A DNA stretch of 64,000 nucleotides from Alphaproteobacteria bacterium (GTDB lineage Bacteria > Pseudomonadota > Alphaproteobacteria > UBA9219 > RFNS01): contig WGMR01000004.1 in assembly GCA_016124955.1 (NCBI GenBank), forward strand, positions 57,491 to 121,490, given 5' to 3'. Made by a program: the position numbers and the translations under genes. Shown piece by piece: positions 2,575-48,354 of this stretch; positions within the stretch are counted from its first letter, which is position 1; the number at the start of each line of letters is the position of its first letter. A model generated the notes under the pieces. That model was not told where the DNA came from, did not search any database, and worked only from the letters and a program-made list of their open reading frames with translations.

Positions 2575-4301
2575 CAGGAAAGCTTGATGCCAAGCCGCCG
2601 ATAGATAAAGAATTGCTGCGCGATGGAAATCAGGTTGCTGCAGGTCCAGTAAACGATCAGCCCCGAAGCCATGGTCGGCCCCAGCATGAAGGTGAACACG
2701 ATCGGCAGCAGGATAAAAACCTTGGCCTGCACCGGGTCGGCCGGCTGCGGGCTCATCTTCTGCTGCAAGAACATGCTGATGCCCATCAGGAGCGGCCAAA
2801 CGCCGATATGCATGAAGCCAAGGAACCCGGGCGCGTCATAAGGCAAAAGCCCGAACAGGTTGACGATCGTAGTCGGGTCCGGCGCGGAAAGATCGCGGAT
2901 CCAGCCGAAGAAAGGCGCATGCCGCATTTCGATCCCGACATACAAAACCTTGTAAAGCGCAAAGAAAACCGGGATCTGGAATAAAATCGGCACGCAGCCC
3001 GAAAACGGGCTGACCTTTTCGCGCTTGTACAATTCCATCATCTCCACGCTCTGGCGCGTGCGGTCGTCCTTGTAGCGTTCCGTCAGCTTCTTCATTTCCG
3101 GCTGAAGCTTCTTCATGCGCGCCATGGATGTGTAGGATTTAACCCCGAGCGGCAGCACGCAAAGCTTGACCAGCACGGTCAGCGCAATGATCGCGAGCCC
3201 TGTATTGCCGATGATCCCCGCCAGCCAGTCAAGCAGCTTCAAAAGCGGCTTGGTCAGGAAATAGAACCAGCCGAAGTCGATCGCGCGGTCGAAACGCGTG
3301 ATCGATAACGTCTCCCCGTAGCTATCGAGCAGGTTGACGAGCTTGGGCCCGGCAAACAAATGCGTGACATGCTCCACGCTGCCGCCGGGCGCCAGCTTCT
3401 GCGCGGGCCCGCGGAAATCGGTCTGATAGCGGCCATGCTTGGGCTCTTCGTTTTCTTCGCCCGAATATTTGAATTGCGCGACGATCTGTTCGTCCGCGCC
3501 CGGCACAAGCGCCACCAGCCAGTATTTGTCGGTGATCCCGAGCCAGCCGCCGGTGCCCGGCGTAGCGATTGTCTTTTCATCCACCAGCTTGTCATAGCTG
3601 TGTTCGTGCAAGGTGCCGTCGAATACGCCGGTGGGGCCCGTATGTGCGATGCTGATGGCGTCCTCGCCTTCCGGCACGCCATGGCGCAAAACCAGCCCAT
3701 AGGGATGCAGCGTGACCGCGCCCGCGCCCGTGCTGCGTGCGCCGTCGGTCATCGTGAACATCGCGTTTTCATCGACCGCGATCGTGCGCGTAAAGGTTAT
3801 GCCTTGTCCGTTATCCCATGTCAGCGTCAGCGGCTTATCCTGCGTCAATTCCTTGCCGGTCGCACGCCACAGCGTATCGTTATCAGGCAACGCCGTGCCG
3901 GGCGCGTCCGCGAGCCAGCCGAAGGCGGCGTAATAGGCGCGGTGCGGCGCAGCCGACCCGGGCGGCGACAGCAGCACGATCGGCGGGCTGCCGGGGTCTG
4001 CGGTTTCGCGGTATTGCGGAAGCGTCAGATCGTCGATCCGTCCGCCCCGCAGATTGACGCTGCCGCGGAGTGAAGGCGTGTTGATCTGCACGCGCGGGTC
4101 GTCGGCCAGCACGGCGGCGCGGTCGCGCAATTCGAGCTGCGCTTTTTCCTGTTTCTGCGTCTGTTCGAACTTTACAGATTCCTGCACAGCCTGTTGCGCG
4201 CGAAATTGTTCGATCCGCGGGCGTTCATAAAAGAAGTGAAAACCGAGCATGATCAGCACGGAAAGAATAACGGCGTATATAAGGCGCGTATTATCGACCA
4301 T
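2574..4301 (-). CDS. yidC: membrane protein insertase YidC
   Basis: Long periplasmic domain plus the conserved C-terminal 5-TM insertase core (...[24 protein letters not shown]...). Start placed at [14 protein letters not shown] (4301), which fits YidC N-termini; the upstream ATG at 4340 is the alternative. Confidence 0.85.
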
Positions 4302-36172: not shown

Positions 36173-37216
36173 TCAGGCTTTCCAGTTGCGCACCAGATCC
36201 ACAAGCTGCGCGACATGGTCCGGCGGCGTTGCGGGAAGGATACCGTGACCAAGATTAAAGATAAACGGGCCCCCTGCAAGGGCTTCCATAATGGAGGCAA
36301 CCTCGCGTACCAGCTTGCCCCCGCCCTCGAGCAATATTTCGGGCCGTAAATTGCCCTGTACCGGCCTGTCTTGCTGCAATTTGCGCGCGGCGGCCAGCGA
36401 TACGTCGCTATCTATGCCGATGGCGTCCGCGCCGCTGGCCGCGGCATAGCGGCCATAAAGCCCGCGCGCCCCGCGCGGGAAGCCGATTACGGGTATTTCC
36501 GGGTAATGCCGCTTGATCTCGGCGGTTATCTTTGCCGCCGGTCCGGTCACAAAACGGGTAAAAAGCGCCTCGTCGTGCGCCAGTAATCCGGCCCAGCTGT
36601 CGAATATCTGTAAAACCCCGGCGCCGGCGCTGATTTGCGCTATAAGATATTGCGCGCTTGCTTTGCAAAGCTGGTCTGAAAGCGCTGTCAGAAGATCCGG
36701 CTTTTCCTGCGCCCATTGCAGCGCACGGGCAAAGCCGCCGTTCTTGCCGCTTTTTCCGTCAATCATGTAGCAGGCTACCGTCCAGGGTGCGCCGCAAAAC
36801 CCTATCAGCGATGTTTTGTTGCCAAGTGCGGCGCGGACGGTTTTTATAGCCGCGCAGGTCGGCGCCGTTCCGGCTTCATCGTAAACAAGGTTCCACGCAC
36901 CGCTATCCTCGGGCAACGGGTCCAGACGCGGCCCTTCGCCTTCGGCAAAATCCAGTCTGCGGCCAAGGGCATGGGGAATAAGCAATATATCGGAAAATAT
37001 GATCGCGGCATCCAATCCGAAGCGCTTTACCGGCTGCAAGGTAACTTCGCTTGCCAGTTGCGGGTTTCCGCAAAGTTTCATGAAGCTCCCGGCCTGTTCC
37101 CGGACCGCACGATATTCGGGCAAATAACGTCCCGCCTGCCGCATCAGCCAGATCGGCGGCGGAGATGTGGCTTTGCCATTAAAAGTTTGTTCGAGCGTAC
37201 GCATTGAATTATCCAT
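36173..37216 (-). CDS. hemE: uroporphyrinogen decarboxylase
   Basis: ...PPIWLMRQAGRYLPEYR... HemE N-terminal signature. Confidence 0.9.
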   Translation of the reverse strand: MDNSMRTLEQTFNGKATSPPPIWLMRQAGRYLPEYRAVREQAGSFMKLCGNPQLASEVTLQPVKRFGLDAAIIFSDILLIPHALGRRLDFAEGEGPRLDPLPEDSGAWNLVYDEAGTAPTCAAIKTVRAALGNKTSLIGFCGAPWTVACYMIDGKSGKNGGFARALQWAQEKPDLLTALSDQLCKASAQYLIAQISAGAGVLQIFDSWAGLLAHDEALFTRFVTGPAAKITAEIKRHYPEIPVIGFPRGARGLYGRYAAASGADAIGIDSDVSLAAARKLQQDRPVQGNLRPEILLEGGGKLVREVASIMEALAGGPFIFNLGHGILPATPPDHVAQLVDLVRNWKA

Positions 37217-37606
37217 AGACGCGTTCTTCTATAATAAGAATATATAATAGATAGGAGTTGTAGGTTGGTCCTGTTGAAAATGGGTATGGAATGGCTTTTT
37301 AAGGGTTATGCGCTAAGTTATACGCAGGCTTTTTTTATAAGGCTTCAATATCCCTGTGGATCGAAACTGTGTAGCCATGTGTGCAAGTCCGCATATTGGC
37401 GCTAACCGAGGTTTGTGATTTTTGGGGGTAAACAAGGCCCTTGTTTTATCCCGGTTATACACAAGCGTGTTTGACATAACGGCTATCCTGTTGGGTAAAA
37501 GCGTGACAGTTTGTGCATGACAGGGATGATTTTCATGGGCCTGTGAAAAACCCGTTCTTGTCACCGTAATCCACAGGCACAGCGCAGGAAGGACAGAATA
37601 CCGGCA
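37205..37606. other. oriC: candidate chromosomal replication origin (Cori-type, between hemE and DUF299 gene)
   Basis: Roughly 390 bp non-coding, visibly AT-richer than its surroundings. DnaA-box-like 9-mers: TTATCCATA (37209-37217), GATCCACAG on the bottom strand (37354-37362), TTATACACA (37455-37463), TAATCCACA (37567-37575), and weak TTATCCCGG (37445-37453). AT tracts at 37224-37256. The location matches the conserved hemE|RP001(DUF299) origin site of Caulobacter and Rickettsia. Confidence 0.55.
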
Positions 37607-38452
37607 ATGGAAAGCAAGGAATTCCATATCCATCTTGTTTCCGACGCGACGGGTGAAACCATCAACACCATTGCCCGCGCCTGCCTCGTGCAATTTGAAG
37701 GCATTGAAGCGAGCCAATATTTCTGGAGCCTGATCCGCACTCCGCGTCAGCTCGATATGGCGATCGATGGTATCCGCGCCCGTCCGGGGCTTGTCATGTA
37801 CACCTTCGTTGACGAAGAATTGCGCCTGAAACTTGAGGATTTCTGCAAAAAGGAAAGCATACGCAGCATTTCGGTGCTCGATCCCGTGATGGATGCGATG
37901 CGCGACCATTTCGGCGTCAAGGCCGCGCACAATCCGGGCAAGCAGCATGTGCTGGATACCGATTACTTCGACCGGATCGAAGCGATGGATTTCGCGCTCG
38001 CGCTCGATGACGGCAACGGGTCGCGCAATCTCGAAAAGGCCGATGTCATTATCCTCGGGGTTTCGCGCACCTCGAAAACCCCGACCTGCGTTTATCTGGC
38101 CAATCGCGGCATCAAGGCCGCCAATATTCCGGTCGTCCCCGGCGTGGCGCTGCCCGAAAACCTTACGGAACTGTGCAAGGGCAGGCTGGTCGTCGGTCTC
38201 ACCAAGGATCCGGAAAGCCTGGTGGAGATCCGCCGCCACAGGCTTAAGTGGCTCAACCAGCATCAGGAAACCGATTACGTCGATCCGGACAAGGTAAAAG
38301 AAGAGGTACAGGAGGCGCGCCGCCTGTTCGCGCGTTTGGGGCTGCCGGTGATCGATGTTTCGCGCCGCTCCATTGAAGAAACCGCGGCCGAGGTTATGAT
38401 GCTATTGCAGAAACGCCGCATTGCGGCGGATAGCGGACGGGAAGGGCAATAA
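37607..38452 (+). CDS. DUF299 kinase/pyrophosphorylase (pyruvate,phosphate dikinase / PEP synthase regulatory protein-like)
   Basis: MESKEFHIHLVSDATGET...GVSRTSKTPT... hallmark of the PDRP/PSRP family. Confidence 0.85.
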   Translation: MESKEFHIHLVSDATGETINTIARACLVQFEGIEASQYFWSLIRTPRQLDMAIDGIRARPGLVMYTFVDEELRLKLEDFCKKESIRSISVLDPVMDAMRDHFGVKAAHNPGKQHVLDTDYFDRIEAMDFALALDDGNGSRNLEKADVIILGVSRTSKTPTCVYLANRGIKAANIPVVPGVALPENLTELCKGRLVVGLTKDPESLVEIRRHRLKWLNQHQETDYVDPDKVKEEVQEARRLFARLGLPVIDVSRRSIEETAAEVMMLLQKRRIAADSGREGQ

Positions 38453-43225: not shown

Positions 43226-43232
43226 GGCCGGC

Positions 43233-43568
43233 ATGGAAGCCGAACCCTTTTACCGGGCGCATATTTTCTGCTGCACAAACAAGCGCGCGCCCGGGCACGA
43301 ACGCGGCTGCTGCGCCGACAAGGATAGCGAGCGTTTGCGCAACTATATGAAGCGGCGTGTGAAGGAAGCGGGGCTGGAAGCCGTGCGCGTCAACGGGACC
43401 GGGTGCCTTGACCGTTGCGAGCTTGGGCCCTGCATCGTCATATACCCGGAAGGCGTGTGGTATGCGCCAAAAAACGAAGCCGATGTCGATGAAATTATCG
43501 CTTCGCATTTGCAAGGCGGCGCGCGCGTTGCGCGGCTGTTACTGCCGCCGCGCGCGCAAACGGCCTAG
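43233..43568 (+). CDS. thioredoxin-like [2Fe-2S] ferredoxin
   Basis: HIFCCTNKR...GCCA...GCLDRCELGPCIVIYPEGVWY four-Cys pattern of the NuoE/Fd4-like family. Confidence 0.75.
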   Translation: MEAEPFYRAHIFCCTNKRAPGHERGCCADKDSERLRNYMKRRVKEAGLEAVRVNGTGCLDRCELGPCIVIYPEGVWYAPKNEADVDEIIASHLQGGARVARLLLPPRAQTA

Positions 43569-44107
43569 CGTTCCCCGCCGATACCCTTGTACTTCAGCAA
43601 AGTTTCGGCCTGCCGCAACAAATCCATGCGTGTCGGCAGCGCGCCCGCCAGCGCGCCTTCCGAAAAATGTTCGATCAAGGCATCGCCAAGCCGCGTGACT
43701 TCTTCGAGATCAAGCGGTCCGTCATTGCCGAAATATTCGGCGCGCAGCGTCATGCGTATGTGCGCGATCAAGTTGGCGATACGCCCGCCCGCGCCCGCGC
43801 CGGATGTTTCGGCGATACCGGCCTTGTTCGTGCCGCCGGCTGTTTGTAAATAAGTCATATCGAAGTGATCGCGCAACGCCGCTTCCGGCATTTCCAGCAG
43901 GGAGGCGAGCCGGTAGCGCACATCTTCGGGCAACTTGCGCGGCGTGCCGCGCTCGAAATACTGGTTCATGTATGAATGGCTTTTGCCGAGCTGCAGCGAA
44001 ACCTCGCGGTCCGTAAGGCCGCGTTCCTGCATGCGCGCGCGCAGCCGGTTGCGCACCGGGTCGCCCGCGCCTTCTTGTCTTCCGGTTTGTTTTTTCATCT
44101 CGGTCAT
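43565..44107 (-). CDS. XRE-family helix-turn-helix transcriptional regulator with C-terminal domain of unknown function
   Basis: N-terminal HTH (GLTDREVSLQLGKSHSYMNQYFERG). Start at 44107 or 44098. Divergent from a small ORF across an operator-like repeat region. Confidence 0.65.
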   Translation of the reverse strand: MTEMKKQTGRQEGAGDPVRNRLRARMQERGLTDREVSLQLGKSHSYMNQYFERGTPRKLPEDVRYRLASLLEMPEAALRDHFDMTYLQTAGGTNKAGIAETSGAGAGGRIANLIAHIRMTLRAEYFGNDGPLDLEEVTRLGDALIEHFSEGALAGALPTRMDLLRQAETLLKYKGIGGER

Positions 44108-44197
44108 AGGATAAATACTATATACATAGGAAGATAAGTACACAATATATAAAATATCCTATTGACATATAGGAAACGCCCTATACATTCTGTGGGC
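44108..44197. promoter_or_regulatory. AT-rich divergent promoter region with ATAGGA-motif array (operator-like)
   Basis: ATAGGA at ~44108, 44128 and 44173, plus the inverted pair TCCTAT-tgacat-ATAGGA (44157-44176). Strongly AT-rich in a GC-rich genome. Confidence 0.4.
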
Positions 44198-44425
44198 ATG
44201 ATGACCCCCGGCCCATACCCGCCTGCGTTTTCCGGCCAACTTGCGCCCGAACAGTTCCTTGCGGCGGTGGATTTGTTCCTGCGCCGTAGCGGCATGTCGG
44301 CAAGCATGCTGGGCAAATGCGCGGTCAACGATCCGGGTCTTGTGTTCCAGCTGCGCCGGGGGCGCGAACCGCGCCGCAAAACCATGCAACGCGTACTTGA
44401 TTACATGGCGTCCTATACCGGCTAG
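44198..44425 (+). CDS. small hypothetical protein (75 aa), possible DNA-binding
   Basis: MMTPGPYPP...GMSASMLGKCAVNDPGLVFQLRRGREPRRKTMQRVLDYM; a conserved-looking alphaproteobacterial small-protein pattern. Confidence 0.4.
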   Translation: MMTPGPYPPAFSGQLAPEQFLAAVDLFLRRSGMSASMLGKCAVNDPGLVFQLRRGREPRRKTMQRVLDYMASYTG

Positions 44426-44466
44426 CCCGCTGGTCTGCGTGCGCGCATGCGGTTATACATTTCTGC

Positions 44467-45831
44467 ATGTCTGAAAATCCCGCGCCCGCCAACAATGCCG
44501 CCGAAACCATCTTCGCACTTGCCTCCGCGCCCGGCCGCGGCGGTATTGCCGTTCTGCGCATATCGGGCCCGCAAGCGGGCGCCGCCGCTACGGCGCTTTG
44601 CGCCGCAACCCTGCCGCCGCCGCGCACGGCGGCGTTGCGCACATTGCGCCATCCCGGCACGAAAGAAATTATGGATCGTGCGTTGCTGTTCTGGTTTCCG
44701 GCGCCCGGCAGCTTCACGGGCGAAGACGTCGTCGAATTGCATGTGCATGGCGGCCGCGCGGTGACCGAAGCGGTGGCGGAAGCGTTACGCGCGCAGCCCG
44801 GCTTGCGCCATGCCGGACCGGGCGAATTTACCCGCCGCGGTTTTGAAAACGGCAAGTTCGATCTGACGGCGGCCGAAGCGATTGCCGATCTTGCGGCTTC
44901 GGAAACCGAAGCGCAGCGCAAACAGGCGTTGCGGCAAATGGACGGCGCGCTCGCGCGCCTGTATGACGGCTGGGCCGCGCGCCTGACCCGCGCGCTCGCG
45001 CATCTTGAGGCCGATATCGATTTCGCGGACGAAGACCTTCCCCCCGATGCGTACAATGCGCCGTTGGCCGAATTGCGGGCGATGGCGGGCGATATCGCAG
45101 CGCATCTGGCAGACAGGCGCGGCGAAAGTTTGCGCGAAGGCTTCCATATCGCCATTCTCGGCGCGCCCAATGCCGGCAAATCATCCTTGCTCAATGCGCT
45201 GGCGCGGCGCGAAGCGGCGATCGTCGCGGAACAGGCGGGCACGACGCGCGATGTGATTGAAGTGCGGCTCGATCTCGGCGGCTATCCGGTCACGCTTGCC
45301 GATACCGCCGGTTTGCGCGAAAGCGCCGACGCGGTGGAAAGCGAAGGCGTAAGCCGCGCGCTGGCGCGCGCCCGCGCGGCCGATCTTACGCTGCTGGTGT
45401 TCGATGCCGCCTTGCTCGCATCGACGCCGCCCGATGCCGCGACCTTGGCGCTGGCCGGCCCCGCCAGCATGGCGGTTTTGAACAAATCCGATATCGAGGG
45501 CGCGGCGAAAGCATTGTCCGCCCCCGTCGCATCGGTCCATCCGCTTTCCGCGAAAACCGGTGCGGGCATGGAAAACTTTATCGCCGCGCTTACCCAAACC
45601 GTGGCCGCGCGTCTTGCCGATACCGGTGCACCGTCCCTTACCCGTTCCCGCCACCGCGAAGCTTTGGAGGAATGTTGCGGGGCATTGTTGCGCGCATCGA
45701 TGGCGGTTGCGCCGGAATTGCGCGCGGAAGATGCCCGCCTTGCGCTGCGCGCGCTCGGGCGCATCACCGGCCGGGTCGATGTTGAAGATTTGCTCGATGT
45801 CATATTTCGCGATTTTTGTATCGGGAAATAA
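44467..45831 (+). CDS. mnmE: tRNA modification GTPase MnmE
   Basis: N-terminal THF-binding domain, G-domain (GAPNAGKSSLLNAL, DTAG) and C-terminal CIGK. Confidence 0.95.
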   Translation: MSENPAPANNAAETIFALASAPGRGGIAVLRISGPQAGAAATALCAATLPPPRTAALRTLRHPGTKEIMDRALLFWFPAPGSFTGEDVVELHVHGGRAVTEAVAEALRAQPGLRHAGPGEFTRRGFENGKFDLTAAEAIADLAASETEAQRKQALRQMDGALARLYDGWAARLTRALAHLEADIDFADEDLPPDAYNAPLAELRAMAGDIAAHLADRRGESLREGFHIAILGAPNAGKSSLLNALARREAAIVAEQAGTTRDVIEVRLDLGGYPVTLADTAGLRESADAVESEGVSRALARARAADLTLLVFDAALLASTPPDAATLALAGPASMAVLNKSDIEGAAKALSAPVASVHPLSAKTGAGMENFIAALTQTVAARLADTGAPSLTRSRHREALEECCGALLRASMAVAPELRAEDARLALRALGRITGRVDVEDLLDVIFRDFCIGK

Positions 45832-45969
45832 AGAAAATCAGCGTATTAACCAACATTCGTGCGCCAAATTCTTGACAGAATGTGCGCCCATGGTCTTTAT
45901 GCGAATGATGATGCGCTTCGCTTGCGCCGGAATTTTTTATAAAGCCATTCGCTCAAAGGGGTTTCAATT

Positions 45970-46527
45970 ATGGCCGCAAACAGCATTGACAGTTTCTTTT
46001 CTGGCGCCGGCAAACTTATGTTTGGCAGGCAGAACTGGGCGAGGACGACACGCGGCATTATTGTGTCCGGCCTTGCCGTCGGCGCCGTGGCAATGCCGGT
46101 CGCCAAGGCTTATTTAACCGGTAAAATCATCGCAGGCCTTACAGCGCTTTCCATCGCGGCGCCCACAGCTGCGGCCCTGGCGCCCACAATTCTTCTGGGC
46201 GCGGCGCTTTGCGTAGGCGCTTACGCCGCATGGGGCGCGGTTTCCGGCGTCGCCAACGTGACGATGGCGGTGCTCGGCGATAACATGTTCGGCAGGGCGG
46301 CGAAGGCCGTCGTTGAACATCCGCGCACGACCGCCTTCCTTGTTGGCGCGGGCCTGACCGCATTCGGCCTTGCGGCCCTGCTTATGCCTGGCTTTGCGGC
46401 GCTTATACCGCCGGCCGTTACGGCCTTCGGGCTCAACGGCGCGATGACTACGGCCGTTGCGGGCGCGGGTATTATGGGATTGTCCGCGAACGCAATGCGC
46501 AATGCCGGCATGACCGGCCCGCACTGA
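45970..46527 (+). CDS. hypothetical Ala/Gly-rich integral membrane protein
   Basis: AAAGGGG RBS. A TTGACA-like -35 sits in the AT-rich 140 bp upstream region. Multiple TM segments; T-ending codons are more frequent than in the core genes. Confidence 0.5.
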   Translation: MAANSIDSFFSGAGKLMFGRQNWARTTRGIIVSGLAVGAVAMPVAKAYLTGKIIAGLTALSIAAPTAAALAPTILLGAALCVGAYAAWGAVSGVANVTMAVLGDNMFGRAAKAVVEHPRTTAFLVGAGLTAFGLAALLMPGFAALIPPAVTAFGLNGAMTTAVAGAGIMGLSANAMRNAGMTGPH

Positions 46528-46554
46528 TTTTCAATATAGACGGATTGAAGAGGC

Positions 46555-47277
46555 TCAGAGCCCCTTGGCGAGCAGCGAGATGGCCGCCGCCACGAGCAGT
46601 ATGTTGATGGCGGCGCGAAACCTGTCTTCCGATATCAGGCGCGGAACCTTGTAGCCGACCGCGAGCCCCAGCAAATGCGCGGGCAAACAAATGAGCAACA
46701 ACGTCAGAATTTCCCCATGATACATGCCGGCCGTGCCGCTGAGCGCGCAACGCAACGCATTGCCTGCGAACAAAATCAACAGAACGCTTGCCCGGAATGT
46801 TTCCTTGTTCAGCGAAAGGGTTTTCAAATAAGTCACGATAAAGGGCCCGCCCATGCCCGATATGCCCGAAACTACCCCGCCTGCCGCGCCCGCCGCCGCC
46901 TGCGCCGCCACGTTTTTCACGCCGCGCAATTGCGGAAACTTCAGCCGCGCGCCCGCCGCGACATAAAAAACCAAATAGCCGGCCAGCACGAAGTTAAGCA
47001 GGCTGTCATCGACCGTGTTGAGCAAAAACAAGCCGAGCGCGGAGGCGGCAGGGAAAACCACGGCGATCACGCCGATTCCCTTCCAATCGATATGACGCCA
47101 GATAAAAGGCAGGAGTACGCCTTTGAGCGCCTGAAACACAAGGAAAAGCGTCACGCTGTCCTTGATGCCGAACATGAGACTAAGCAACGGCACGGCGACA
47201 AGACCGCCGCCAAAACCGAACGTGGCCTCGACAAGCGAGGTGGCAAAAACGATAACGACACTCAGGAAAATTTCCAT
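46555..47277 (-). CDS. TauE/SafE-family sulfite/organosulfonate exporter
   Basis: Two-repeat 4+4 TM topology with the conserved Gly-rich GFGGG segment near the N-terminus (FGFGGGLVAVPLL), PF01925-like. Confidence 0.8.
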   Translation of the reverse strand: MEIFLSVVIVFATSLVEATFGFGGGLVAVPLLSLMFGIKDSVTLFLVFQALKGVLLPFIWRHIDWKGIGVIAVVFPAASALGLFLLNTVDDSLLNFVLAGYLVFYVAAGARLKFPQLRGVKNVAAQAAAGAAGGVVSGISGMGGPFIVTYLKTLSLNKETFRASVLLILFAGNALRCALSGTAGMYHGEILTLLLICLPAHLLGLAVGYKVPRLISEDRFRAAINILLVAAAISLLAKGL

Positions 47278-47331
47278 GCGCTTTTATGGCAGGAAAAGCG
47301 CCGGGTGGGAAATTTGTATGATAGTCCGGGT

Positions 47332-48048
47332 TTAGTGTGCCGGCGCGTAGTCGCCGCTGAAATCGACGTCGCTTTTCACGAGCCGGAGATGCGGAACACT
47401 TTTCTTCTGCGCCGCCCTGGTTTCCGCTTTTTGTTGTTCGACCAAGGCTTCGGCCTCGCTCACAAGATAATCCGCGACCATTGCCAGTTCCTGCGCGATG
47501 CTTACTTGGTCCTGCGGGTCGCTCAGCTCGATGTAATCGATATTAAATTCGCGCAACGTGTTGCAGCAATGCAGGCTGCTGACAAGCAGCGAAAGATCGT
47601 GGAACAGGGTGCCGATGCGCGTCGCCATCGCGCGCATGCGCGTCTTGGCCGGGCCGGTCGCGAGCCCGCAGCGCGTCAGCGCATGGATGAAATCGTTGCC
47701 GAAAATCATGGCATCCGGCGCGATGCCGTGCTGGCCGTCTTCGTTGTTGCGGCCGCGCGTGATCCACGCGCGCATCTGTTCACGCACGGCGGTGTTGCCA
47801 TCACCCGCGCCGCCAACCTCGCCGTCCGGGTCAAGTCTGGTGGGCAGCCATGCCAGTTCATCGAGCTGGTGACGGATCGCGCGCATGCCCATGCGCTCGG
47901 CCTGCATATAAGCGAAGGCGTATTCGTCGCGGCTGCAATCGGCCGAAAGGCTATGCGCGGCCAAAATGGCCTCGCGTTCGCCGGCGATGCGCTCCTTGGC
48001 GGCCATCAGAAGGCCGCGCACTTCATCGATATGTAATTCGGTGGCCAT
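47332..48048 (-). CDS. hypothetical protein (239 aa)
   Basis: ORF from MATELHIDEVRGLL...; several HxxxE/ExxH-type spacings. No confident family. Confidence 0.5.
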   Translation of the reverse strand: MATELHIDEVRGLLMAAKERIAGEREAILAAHSLSADCSRDEYAFAYMQAERMGMRAIRHQLDELAWLPTRLDPDGEVGGAGDGNTAVREQMRAWITRGRNNEDGQHGIAPDAMIFGNDFIHALTRCGLATGPAKTRMRAMATRIGTLFHDLSLLVSSLHCCNTLREFNIDYIELSDPQDQVSIAQELAMVADYLVSEAEALVEQQKAETRAAQKKSVPHLRLVKSDVDFSGDYAPAH

Positions 48049-48354
48049 GGGCCTGTTCCGATCCCTTGTTTCGCGGCACCGGGCCGCAAAGCCCGAAATA
48101 ACCGCACAAAGGTTAATTTTAACCAAAATATATCCATAAATTGTTAAGCCACAGCTTTAACAATCAATCATTAAACATATGATATATAACAATAATTTTT
48201 GTGTCATTGGCCTTATGGGTGCCTTTGCGGCTAAGACGCTGATATCCCTGCCTGTCTCAAAATTTTTTTTAATTGTGCAACAAAAGTTCGTTAAATATCG
48301 CCATCAGCGCACATTCTTTGCGCGCGCGGGCGTTTCGCCCTATACCTTCCGGCC

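Follow-up and report, generated by a model that had tools for sequence, protein, structure and literature searches.

A probable orphan lambda-type immunity switch of phage origin between the ferredoxin and mnmE genes of an alphaproteobacterium

The immunity regions of phages lambda (cI-OR-cro) and P22 (c2-OR-cro) combine a repressor gene with a divergent small gene for a Cro-type helix-turn-helix (HTH) protein, and several palindromic operators, about two helical turns apart in a short spacer, overlap both promoters. The same arrangement, with predicted operators, occurs in a 64,000-nucleotide stretch (here called the window) of contig WGMR01000004.1 from a metagenome-assembled alphaproteobacterium (GCA_016124955.1), in which divergent genes for a 180-amino-acid (aa) repressor and a 75-aa small protein lie between a ferredoxin gene and mnmE. 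This two-gene cassette of ~900 bp is probably of phage origin, a lambda-type switch for immunity (lysis/lysogeny) that has become an orphan. An earlier note on this DNA had proposed a cI/cro-like switch, a proposal supported by homologous pairs in prophages, conserved operator half-sites, a predicted XRE/Cro-type structure and an empty site in relatives. The likeness to lambda extends to OR1-OR2-OR3 logic, as most family members have their best operator within the core of the promoter of the small gene, a weaker one (…CCTC) by its −35 box and a third near the repressor start, and an S24 autopeptidase domain is present in most family members. Unlike lambda and P22, however, the locus encodes proteins with no detectable similarity to theirs, the operator differs (TAGGA-N4-TCCTA), and the window copy has neither an S24 domain nor a prophage around it.

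Short repressors without a peptidase domain, paired with a divergent Cro-like gene and kept after prophage decay, are known from Escherichia coli as DicA/DicC (Qin) and RacR/YdaS (Rac). Those pairs still lie within recognizable defective prophages and control the toxic phage genes dicB and ydaT, whereas no phage gene is left at the window locus, the downstream gene is the housekeeping gene mnmE, and there is no sequence relationship to either pair. Among 50,697 deposited phage genomes, the only record with a homologue of the small protein is Synechococcus phage MinM1 (ON981384), in which the homologue (38.6% identity; E 8e-6) is encoded directly beside a repressor gene; unlike the window repressor, that of MinM1 has an S24 domain. 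The MinM1 small gene (positions 3001 to 3204 of locus L070; 21143 to 21346 of ON981384) is unannotated and is partly covered by an opposite-strand “hypothetical protein” coding sequence, which is probably a mis-annotation, and the repressor is annotated as “peptidase S24-like protein”. No description of this operator sequence or of the MinM1 locus was found in the literature. Temperate phages of Paracoccus also carry divergent CI-like and Cro-like XRE regulators, and only one of their CI-like proteins has an S24 domain, so that repressors lacking S24 are normal in alphaproteobacterial phages (PMC6536676). The Paracoccus proteins match Pfam HTH_3, whereas the small protein of the window matches no Pfam, PHROG or NCBIfam model; the comparison is one of arrangement. 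The window pair is a well-preserved and fairly ordinary case of classical lambda logic that overturns nothing in current understanding; what is new is this member, an uncatalogued family in the Cro position, and an operator predicted for a repressor family that is widespread in Alphaproteobacteria.

The repressor gene (GC131_02835) occupies positions 43565 to 44107 on the minus strand, with its ATG at 44107 and its stop codon at 43565, and the gene for the small Cro-like HTH protein (GC131_02840) occupies positions 44198 to 44425 on the plus strand. The 90-bp divergent control region between them (44108 to 44197) has a GC content of 31%, against 61% for the window overall. The lengths of both open reading frames (ORFs), their divergent transcription and the AT-rich 90-bp spacer had been given correctly in the earlier note.

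Comparative analysis ties both genes to prophage lysogeny control. All six small-protein homologues examined on their contigs are divergent from a gene whose product has an N-terminus homologous to that of the window repressor, over ~65 residues (blastp E 1e-9 to 1e-16). Five of these partner repressors are 214 to 256 aa long and end in a Peptidase_S24 domain, the architecture of cI and LexA; the sixth, from a phage-like locus (L001), is 163 aa long and lacks it. The pair in Stella vacuolata lies inside a clear prophage, which also encodes SSB, MT-A70 and Prim-Pol, and the remaining four stand alone amid housekeeping genes. The search for homologous pairs suggested in the earlier note thus recovered them at the lysogeny-control position of prophages. 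A wider search with the repressor HTH picked up 58 viral contigs of IMG/VR as well as 80 genomes from diverse Alphaproteobacteria (among them Xanthobacter, Bradyrhizobium, Gluconacetobacter, Henriciella, Stella, Reyranella, Anderseniella and many metagenome-assembled genomes). The plasmid collection yielded a single weak match. A gene of the small-protein family is the divergent neighbor at 67 of the 131 unique loci. At viral locus L028, where the repressor matches phrog_4 (transcriptional repressor), the operon headed by the small gene includes a Holliday-junction resolvase gene. Most family repressors carry the S24 domain, S24-less ones occurring in L001, L024, L037 and L055, and family members share only 35 to 60% identity while the operator stays unusually conserved. 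On this sequence evidence, the window repressor has at its N-terminus the DNA-binding domain of a family of cI-like repressors from prophages of Alphaproteobacteria.

Two further features of the family were observed in passing. Stand-alone pairs of an S24 repressor and a small gene, with the operator TAGGAAATTTCCTA, occur in different metagenomes (positions 4241 to 5216 of L005/L006 and 4256 to 5186 of L009) and adjoin a glycosyltransferase gene and a Wzy_C/O-antigen-ligase gene; this shared chromosomal locus hints at host domestication, possibly with SOS-linked control of surface polysaccharide. In repressor variants of 174 to 186 aa (L080, L082, L088 and L106), a second XRE-like HTH replaces S24 as the C-terminal half, and neither a TAGGA site nor a small-gene partner is found upstream.

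The spacer had been described as carrying three direct ATAGGA hexamers and a perfect inverted pair, TCCTAT-N6-ATAGGA. These words are present as described, with ATAGGA on the plus strand at 44106, 44126 and 44169, TCCTAT at 44157 to 44162, and TCCTAT-TGACAT-ATAGGA exact, but the true repeat unit is a 14-bp palindrome, TAGGA-N4-TCCTA, and the hexamers are predicted to be half-sites of this conserved operator. The inverted pair is the right half of the operator at 44148 together with the left half of the operator at 44170, around the −35 box. ATAGGA or TCCTAT occurs 14 times in the window (8.5 expected), with four of these occurrences inside 70 bp. When the 96 bp from 44105 to 44200 (the spacer and both start codons) were shuffled with composition preserved, the mean count was 0.06, and none of 20,000 shuffles reached the four observed. 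ATAGGA-like words are commoner in AT-rich DNA, and the window carries hemE, mnmE, mnmG and parA, genes of the replication origin region (hemE-mnmE-mnmG-parAB); a chance AT-rich promoter spacer, or part of an origin, is nevertheless refuted for practical purposes by the shuffles, by the lack of DnaA-box-like 9-mers and CtrA boxes in the spacer (DnaA-like boxes lie 7 kb away by hemE), and by conservation of the motif with the repressor in more than 100 unrelated loci, phages included, and its probability is negligible.

Four operator sites are predicted in the spacer, at successive intervals of 20, 21 and 22 bp. The leftmost, O-L (TAGGATAAATACTA, 44107 to 44120), has one mismatch to TAGGA-N4-TCCTA and overlaps three elements of the repressor gene, namely its −10 box, its presumed transcription start and the first base of its ATG, a position from which it is likely to be the site of autorepression. 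A degenerate site (TAGGAAGATAAGTA, 44127 to 44140) within the spacer of the repressor promoter retains a perfect left half alone, with three mismatches, and may be a weak, orphan half-site. O-M (TATAAAATATCCTA, 44148 to 44161), with a perfect right half and two mismatches, abuts the −35 box of the small gene and matches the usually weaker middle operator of the family. O-R (TAGGAAACGCCCTA, 44170 to 44183), with one mismatch, lies between the −35 and −10 boxes of the small gene, overlapping the latter, and is predicted to be the main repression site. O-L and O-R are the only two sites with no more than one mismatch in the window.

The same palindrome accompanies the repressor elsewhere. Spacers of homologous pairs all carry the operator word of the window, examples being TAGGAAATTTCCTA, TAGGATTTATCCTA and TAGGAATAGTCCTA. 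In 59 unique loci (from the 58 viral loci and individually looked-up contigs), sites that differ from TAGGA-N4-TCCTA at no more than one position reach a density of 8.4 per kb within 170 bp upstream of the repressor gene and 0.17 per kb outside that stretch; in 78 genomic loci the two densities are 5.6 and 0.10 per kb. The motif is thus enriched ~50-fold upstream of repressor genes. At least one such site is present in 102 of 131 unique family loci: 60 of the 67 with the small gene and 42 of the 64 without it. The motif is thus frequent even where the small gene is missing and therefore follows the repressor.

The predicted promoter of the small gene (44162 to 44189, plus strand) consists of TTGACA at 44162 to 44167, a 16-nucleotide (nt) spacer and TACATT at 44184 to 44189, matches at 10 of 12 positions, and was the only sigma-70-like match found by a promoter scan of positions 43400 to 44600. 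Its arrangement also fits the Caulobacter-type housekeeping consensus, TTGACGS-N10-14-GCTANAWC. The ATG of the small gene lies 9 nt past the −10 box, and the mRNA would therefore be leaderless or nearly so; the cI mRNA transcribed from PRM of lambda is likewise leaderless. In the window and its homologues alike, the −10 box overlaps the 3′ end of an operator and the leader is very short. The −35 box of the small gene is bracketed by the operators at 44148 and 44170, and this layout of operator, TTGAC or TAGAC, and operator recurs in 32 of the 67 homologous pairs but in only 4 of the 936 segments used as controls, with a TTGC variant of the −35 box in many of the other pairs. A candidate promoter for the repressor gene (44117 to 44145, minus strand) was read by eye as TTGTGT (44145 to 44140), 17 nt and TATAGT (44122 to 44117), with the ATG at 44107 ~10 nt farther on; the promoter scanner did not report it.

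The repressor itself matches phage transcriptional-regulator PHROGs, e.g., phrog_7241, and resembles Pfam HTH_31 (E 2.6e-4; 21.7 bits against a cut-off of 27) and HTH_3 (15.9 against 23) without reaching the gathering threshold for membership of either. The DNA-binding domain predicted from homology comprises residues 16 to 80 (43868 to 44062, minus strand). Its HTH motif is G-K/R-S/N-H-S/A-Y-x-Q/N-Q-...-R-G-x-P-x-x-L-x-E-x-x-R, in keeping with the family motif G-[KR]-[NS]-[HP]-[AS]-Y-x-[QN]-Q ... R-G-x-P ... L-x-E-x-x-R, and residues R19, S37, G41, Y46, Q49, R53, P56, L59, E61, R64 and A68 are invariant in the family alignment. No Peptidase_S24 match was found in Pfam at E<0.1, nor a G-D/S-S-M motif, and a repressor without this autocleavage domain is not expected to undergo classical SOS induction. 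A Gly/Ala-rich linker leads instead to an all-helical C-terminal region (residues ~107 to 173; 43589 to 43789, minus strand), modeled by single-sequence AF2 as three helices with no beta-rich S24 fold, at low confidence (pLDDT 54.8), a model too poor for a fold search. This region, which is presumed to be an oligomerization domain, resembles none of the ORFs in the related loci that were fetched. A word-indexed search of 5.8 billion proteins for full-length homologues returned only the query itself, and single-protein scans of genome contigs and metagenome contigs found no relatives of the repressor.

The small protein is basic, as the earlier note had it (pI 10.2; 10 Lys plus Arg versus 5 Asp plus Glu). 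It has no match in Pfam, NCBIfam, PHROGs or sequences of the Protein Data Bank (PDB) beyond a weak resemblance to HipB(Lp) (E 0.2 to 0.8), and a word-indexed homology search again returned only the query. Exhaustive HMMER searching, however, recovered 810 cluster representatives at E<1e-3, and profile searching more than 6000 sequences, which are unnamed or spuriously named and, where the source name gives the organism, are all alphaproteobacterial. Across 64 homologues G39 is invariant and D45, V49, R53, G55 and R56 are conserved in at least 90%, so that the motif that had merely looked conserved in the single sequence is family-wide. An AF2 model built from the family alignment has four helices (pLDDT 86.7), and its nearest structures are HipB, SinR, C.Esp1396I and P22 c2 (Foldseek probability 0.99; E no better than 0.14), with further matches to phage Cro/C1 HTH proteins (best E across searches 0.009 to 0.14). 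The predicted fold is therefore XRE/Cro-like and the gene is in the Cro position, without formal Pfam membership. Family members are either single domains of 60 to 90 aa or tandem two-domain proteins; the latter are numerous, 130 to 280 aa long with two matched stretches (e.g., P0003 to P0012), and are covalent pseudo-dimers of the Cro-like domain. Several members of ~65 aa (e.g., P0169, P0176, P0188 and P0208) bear Joint Genome Institute (JGI) names such as “2,4-dienoyl-CoA reductase-like NADH-dependent reductase” or “homoserine dehydrogenase”, evidently propagated annotation errors.

The pair is flanked on the left by a 2Fe-2S ferredoxin gene (43227 to 43568, plus strand; NCBIfam E 2.6e-22, under the equivalog cut-off), whose stop codon overlaps that of the repressor gene, and on the right by mnmE (44467 to 45831, plus strand; Pfam E 5e-45), which begins 41 bp past the end of the small gene, in the same orientation, and whose product is ~10 residues longer at its N-terminus than in relatives; the flanking genes were thus correctly named in the earlier note. 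The neighborhood is an origin-proximal cluster of hemE, dienelactone hydrolase, quinone oxidoreductase, ferredoxin, mnmE, TauE, mnmG and parA genes. In the window the pair has no phage genes on either side and so lacks the setting, next to early lytic and integration genes, that it would have in a prophage. A metagenome scan with mnmE yielded 56 relatives (up to 64 to 66% identity). A ferredoxin gene lies upstream of mnmE in 12 of them, and in 11 of these 12, mnmE starts between −4 and +9 nt from the ferredoxin stop codon; neither a repressor gene nor a small gene lies between the two in any of the 12. This empty site in relatives indicates that the ~900-bp module is an insertion into a translationally coupled ferredoxin-mnmE operon, and supports the remnant of an integrated element that the earlier note had named as one possibility.

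Similar 10-mers are present at the borders of the cassette, ACGGCCTAGC at 43560 to 43569 (ferredoxin stop codon) and ACCGGCTAGC at 44417 to 44426 (small-gene stop codon), but as a target-site duplication they are too short and imperfect to call. The 8-mer TATACATT occurs both at 44182 to 44189 and at 44452 to 44459, shortly before the ATGs of the small gene and mnmE, and may be a duplicated or convergent −10 box, making it a candidate leaderless promoter of mnmE's own. Farther downstream, mnmE and mnmG are separated in the window by 2.5 kb with AT-rich borders (45832 to 48354) that hold genes for a 185-aa membrane protein (45970 to 46527, plus strand), a TauE exporter (46555 to 47277, minus strand) and a 264-aa unknown protein (47332 to 48126, minus strand). 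In 23 of 28 metagenome relatives, mnmG lies downstream within 270 bp of mnmE, and the gap in the window marks another insertion into this conserved cluster. Upstream, an AT-rich gap (37209 to 37575) between hemE (36173 to 37216) and a gene at 37607 contains three DnaA-box-like 9-mers with one mismatch each (TTATCCATA at 37209, TTATACACA at 37455 and TAATCCACA at 37567), a candidate oriC beside hemE, the usual origin position in many Alphaproteobacteria.

From the anatomy, homology, operator conservation and insertion we infer the following scheme of protein-site assignment, cooperativity, promoter activity and present-day function. Repressor dimers would bind the 14-bp TAGGA-N4-TCCTA operators in the spacer, and the operator intervals of 20 to 22 bp, about two helical turns, would permit cooperative binding. 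Occupation of O-R (44170) and O-M (44148) would shut off the small Cro-like gene, and occupation of O-L (44107) would limit repressor synthesis. The small HTH protein would act as counter-regulator and be the product of the first gene of the early lytic operon in intact prophages. With a helical C-terminus in place of the S24 autopeptidase, the repressor would not be inactivated by RecA-stimulated self-cleavage and, as it is not self-cleaving, the switch is probably locked in, or biased towards, one state. That the module is functional is suggested by its intact ORFs, the retention of all family-invariant residues, the typical third-codon-position GC content (GC3) and the preserved core operators and −35 box.

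Several observations weigh against the reading as an immunity switch. Two of the four sites in the window are half-sites only; the C-terminal half of the repressor is an orphan in sequence and its model is poor; the structural similarity of the small protein to XRE domains is consistent yet statistically weak (best Foldseek E 0.009 to 0.14), and a profile-profile comparison of the repressor and small-protein HTH families was not significant. The leftward promoter was read by eye. No close relatives of either gene were found, so purifying selection was not measurable and the pair may be an inert relic.

The alternative that fares best is compatible with an immunity switch and holds that the switch has been domesticated: mnmE, severed from the ferredoxin promoter, would be transcribed by read-through from the rightward Cro-like promoter, and tRNA-modification capacity would follow the state of a phage-derived, possibly bistable switch. 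In relatives the translational coupling of ferredoxin and mnmE leaves mnmE without a promoter of its own, and in the window the 41-bp junction between the small gene and mnmE (44426 to 44466, plus strand), which contains TATACATT, has no predicted terminator and no significant RNA structure (fold z-score −1.0), so that nothing evident separates mnmE from the small gene on the same strand. Stand-alone pairs of repressor and small gene also recur in non-phage chromosomal contexts of other alphaproteobacteria. A non-cleavable repressor would nevertheless hold mnmE off, which seems costly, the TATACATT box 8 nt before the mnmE ATG could be a new −10 box giving mnmE its own promoter, and read-through from ferredoxin across the convergent repressor gene could also supply it. 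Domestication of this kind is conceivable, with the odds against it.

Somewhat less probable is that a decayed prophage has left the pair as its last fragment, which no longer serves the host. The two genes stand alone, without an integrase gene, att sites or any other phage gene in the vicinity, the repressor has no S24 domain, two of the operators are reduced to half-sites, and the second insertion, between mnmE and mnmG, suggests a rearrangement-prone region. Decay of this kind is at odds, however, with the intact reading frames of both genes, in which all family-invariant residues are kept and GC3 (0.68 to 0.69) is that usual for coding sequence in this genome, with the preservation of two core operators, the TTGACA −35 box and the conserved layout, and with the extremely tight packing, in which stop codons overlap and no decayed flanking DNA is visible.

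It is very improbable that the pair is a toxin-antitoxin module around an XRE antitoxin or a restriction-modification module around an XRE controller (C-protein). In structure the small protein does come closest to HipB antitoxins and C.Esp1396I controllers, and its weak sequence match to HipB(Lp) points the same way, but fold similarity of this kind is generic to all XRE domains. The partner genes required by HipBA/HigBA-like systems or by a C-protein are absent, with no toxin, kinase, nuclease or methyltransferase gene adjacent in the window; the two genes are divergent and not cotranscribed, both encode HTH proteins, and their homologues occupy prophage lysogeny-control positions beside S24 repressors.

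The locus defines a large HTH family in the Cro position (more than 6000 sequences) for which no Pfam, PHROG or NCBIfam model exists, and sequence comparison indicates that many “S24 peptidase” proteins of Alphaproteobacteria begin with a DNA-binding domain whose operator, TAGGA-N4-TCCTA, is predictable. The module occurs both in prophages and as stand-alone chromosomal pairs. Together these results should improve the annotation of alphaproteobacterial prophage lysogeny modules, which have been poorly characterized so far. The window copy offers a clean natural example of a housekeeping operon split by an immunity cassette and raises the question of whether a phage switch now gates mnmE or provides cross-immunity. 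We consider it unlikely that the host keeps the orphan, non-cleavable repressor as standing immunity against all those temperate phages of Alphaproteobacteria that share the TAGGA-N4-TCCTA operator and/or that the captured switch serves as the mnmE promoter; if the latter holds, a tRNA-modification enzyme would be under the control of a phage-type, possibly bistable, circuit.

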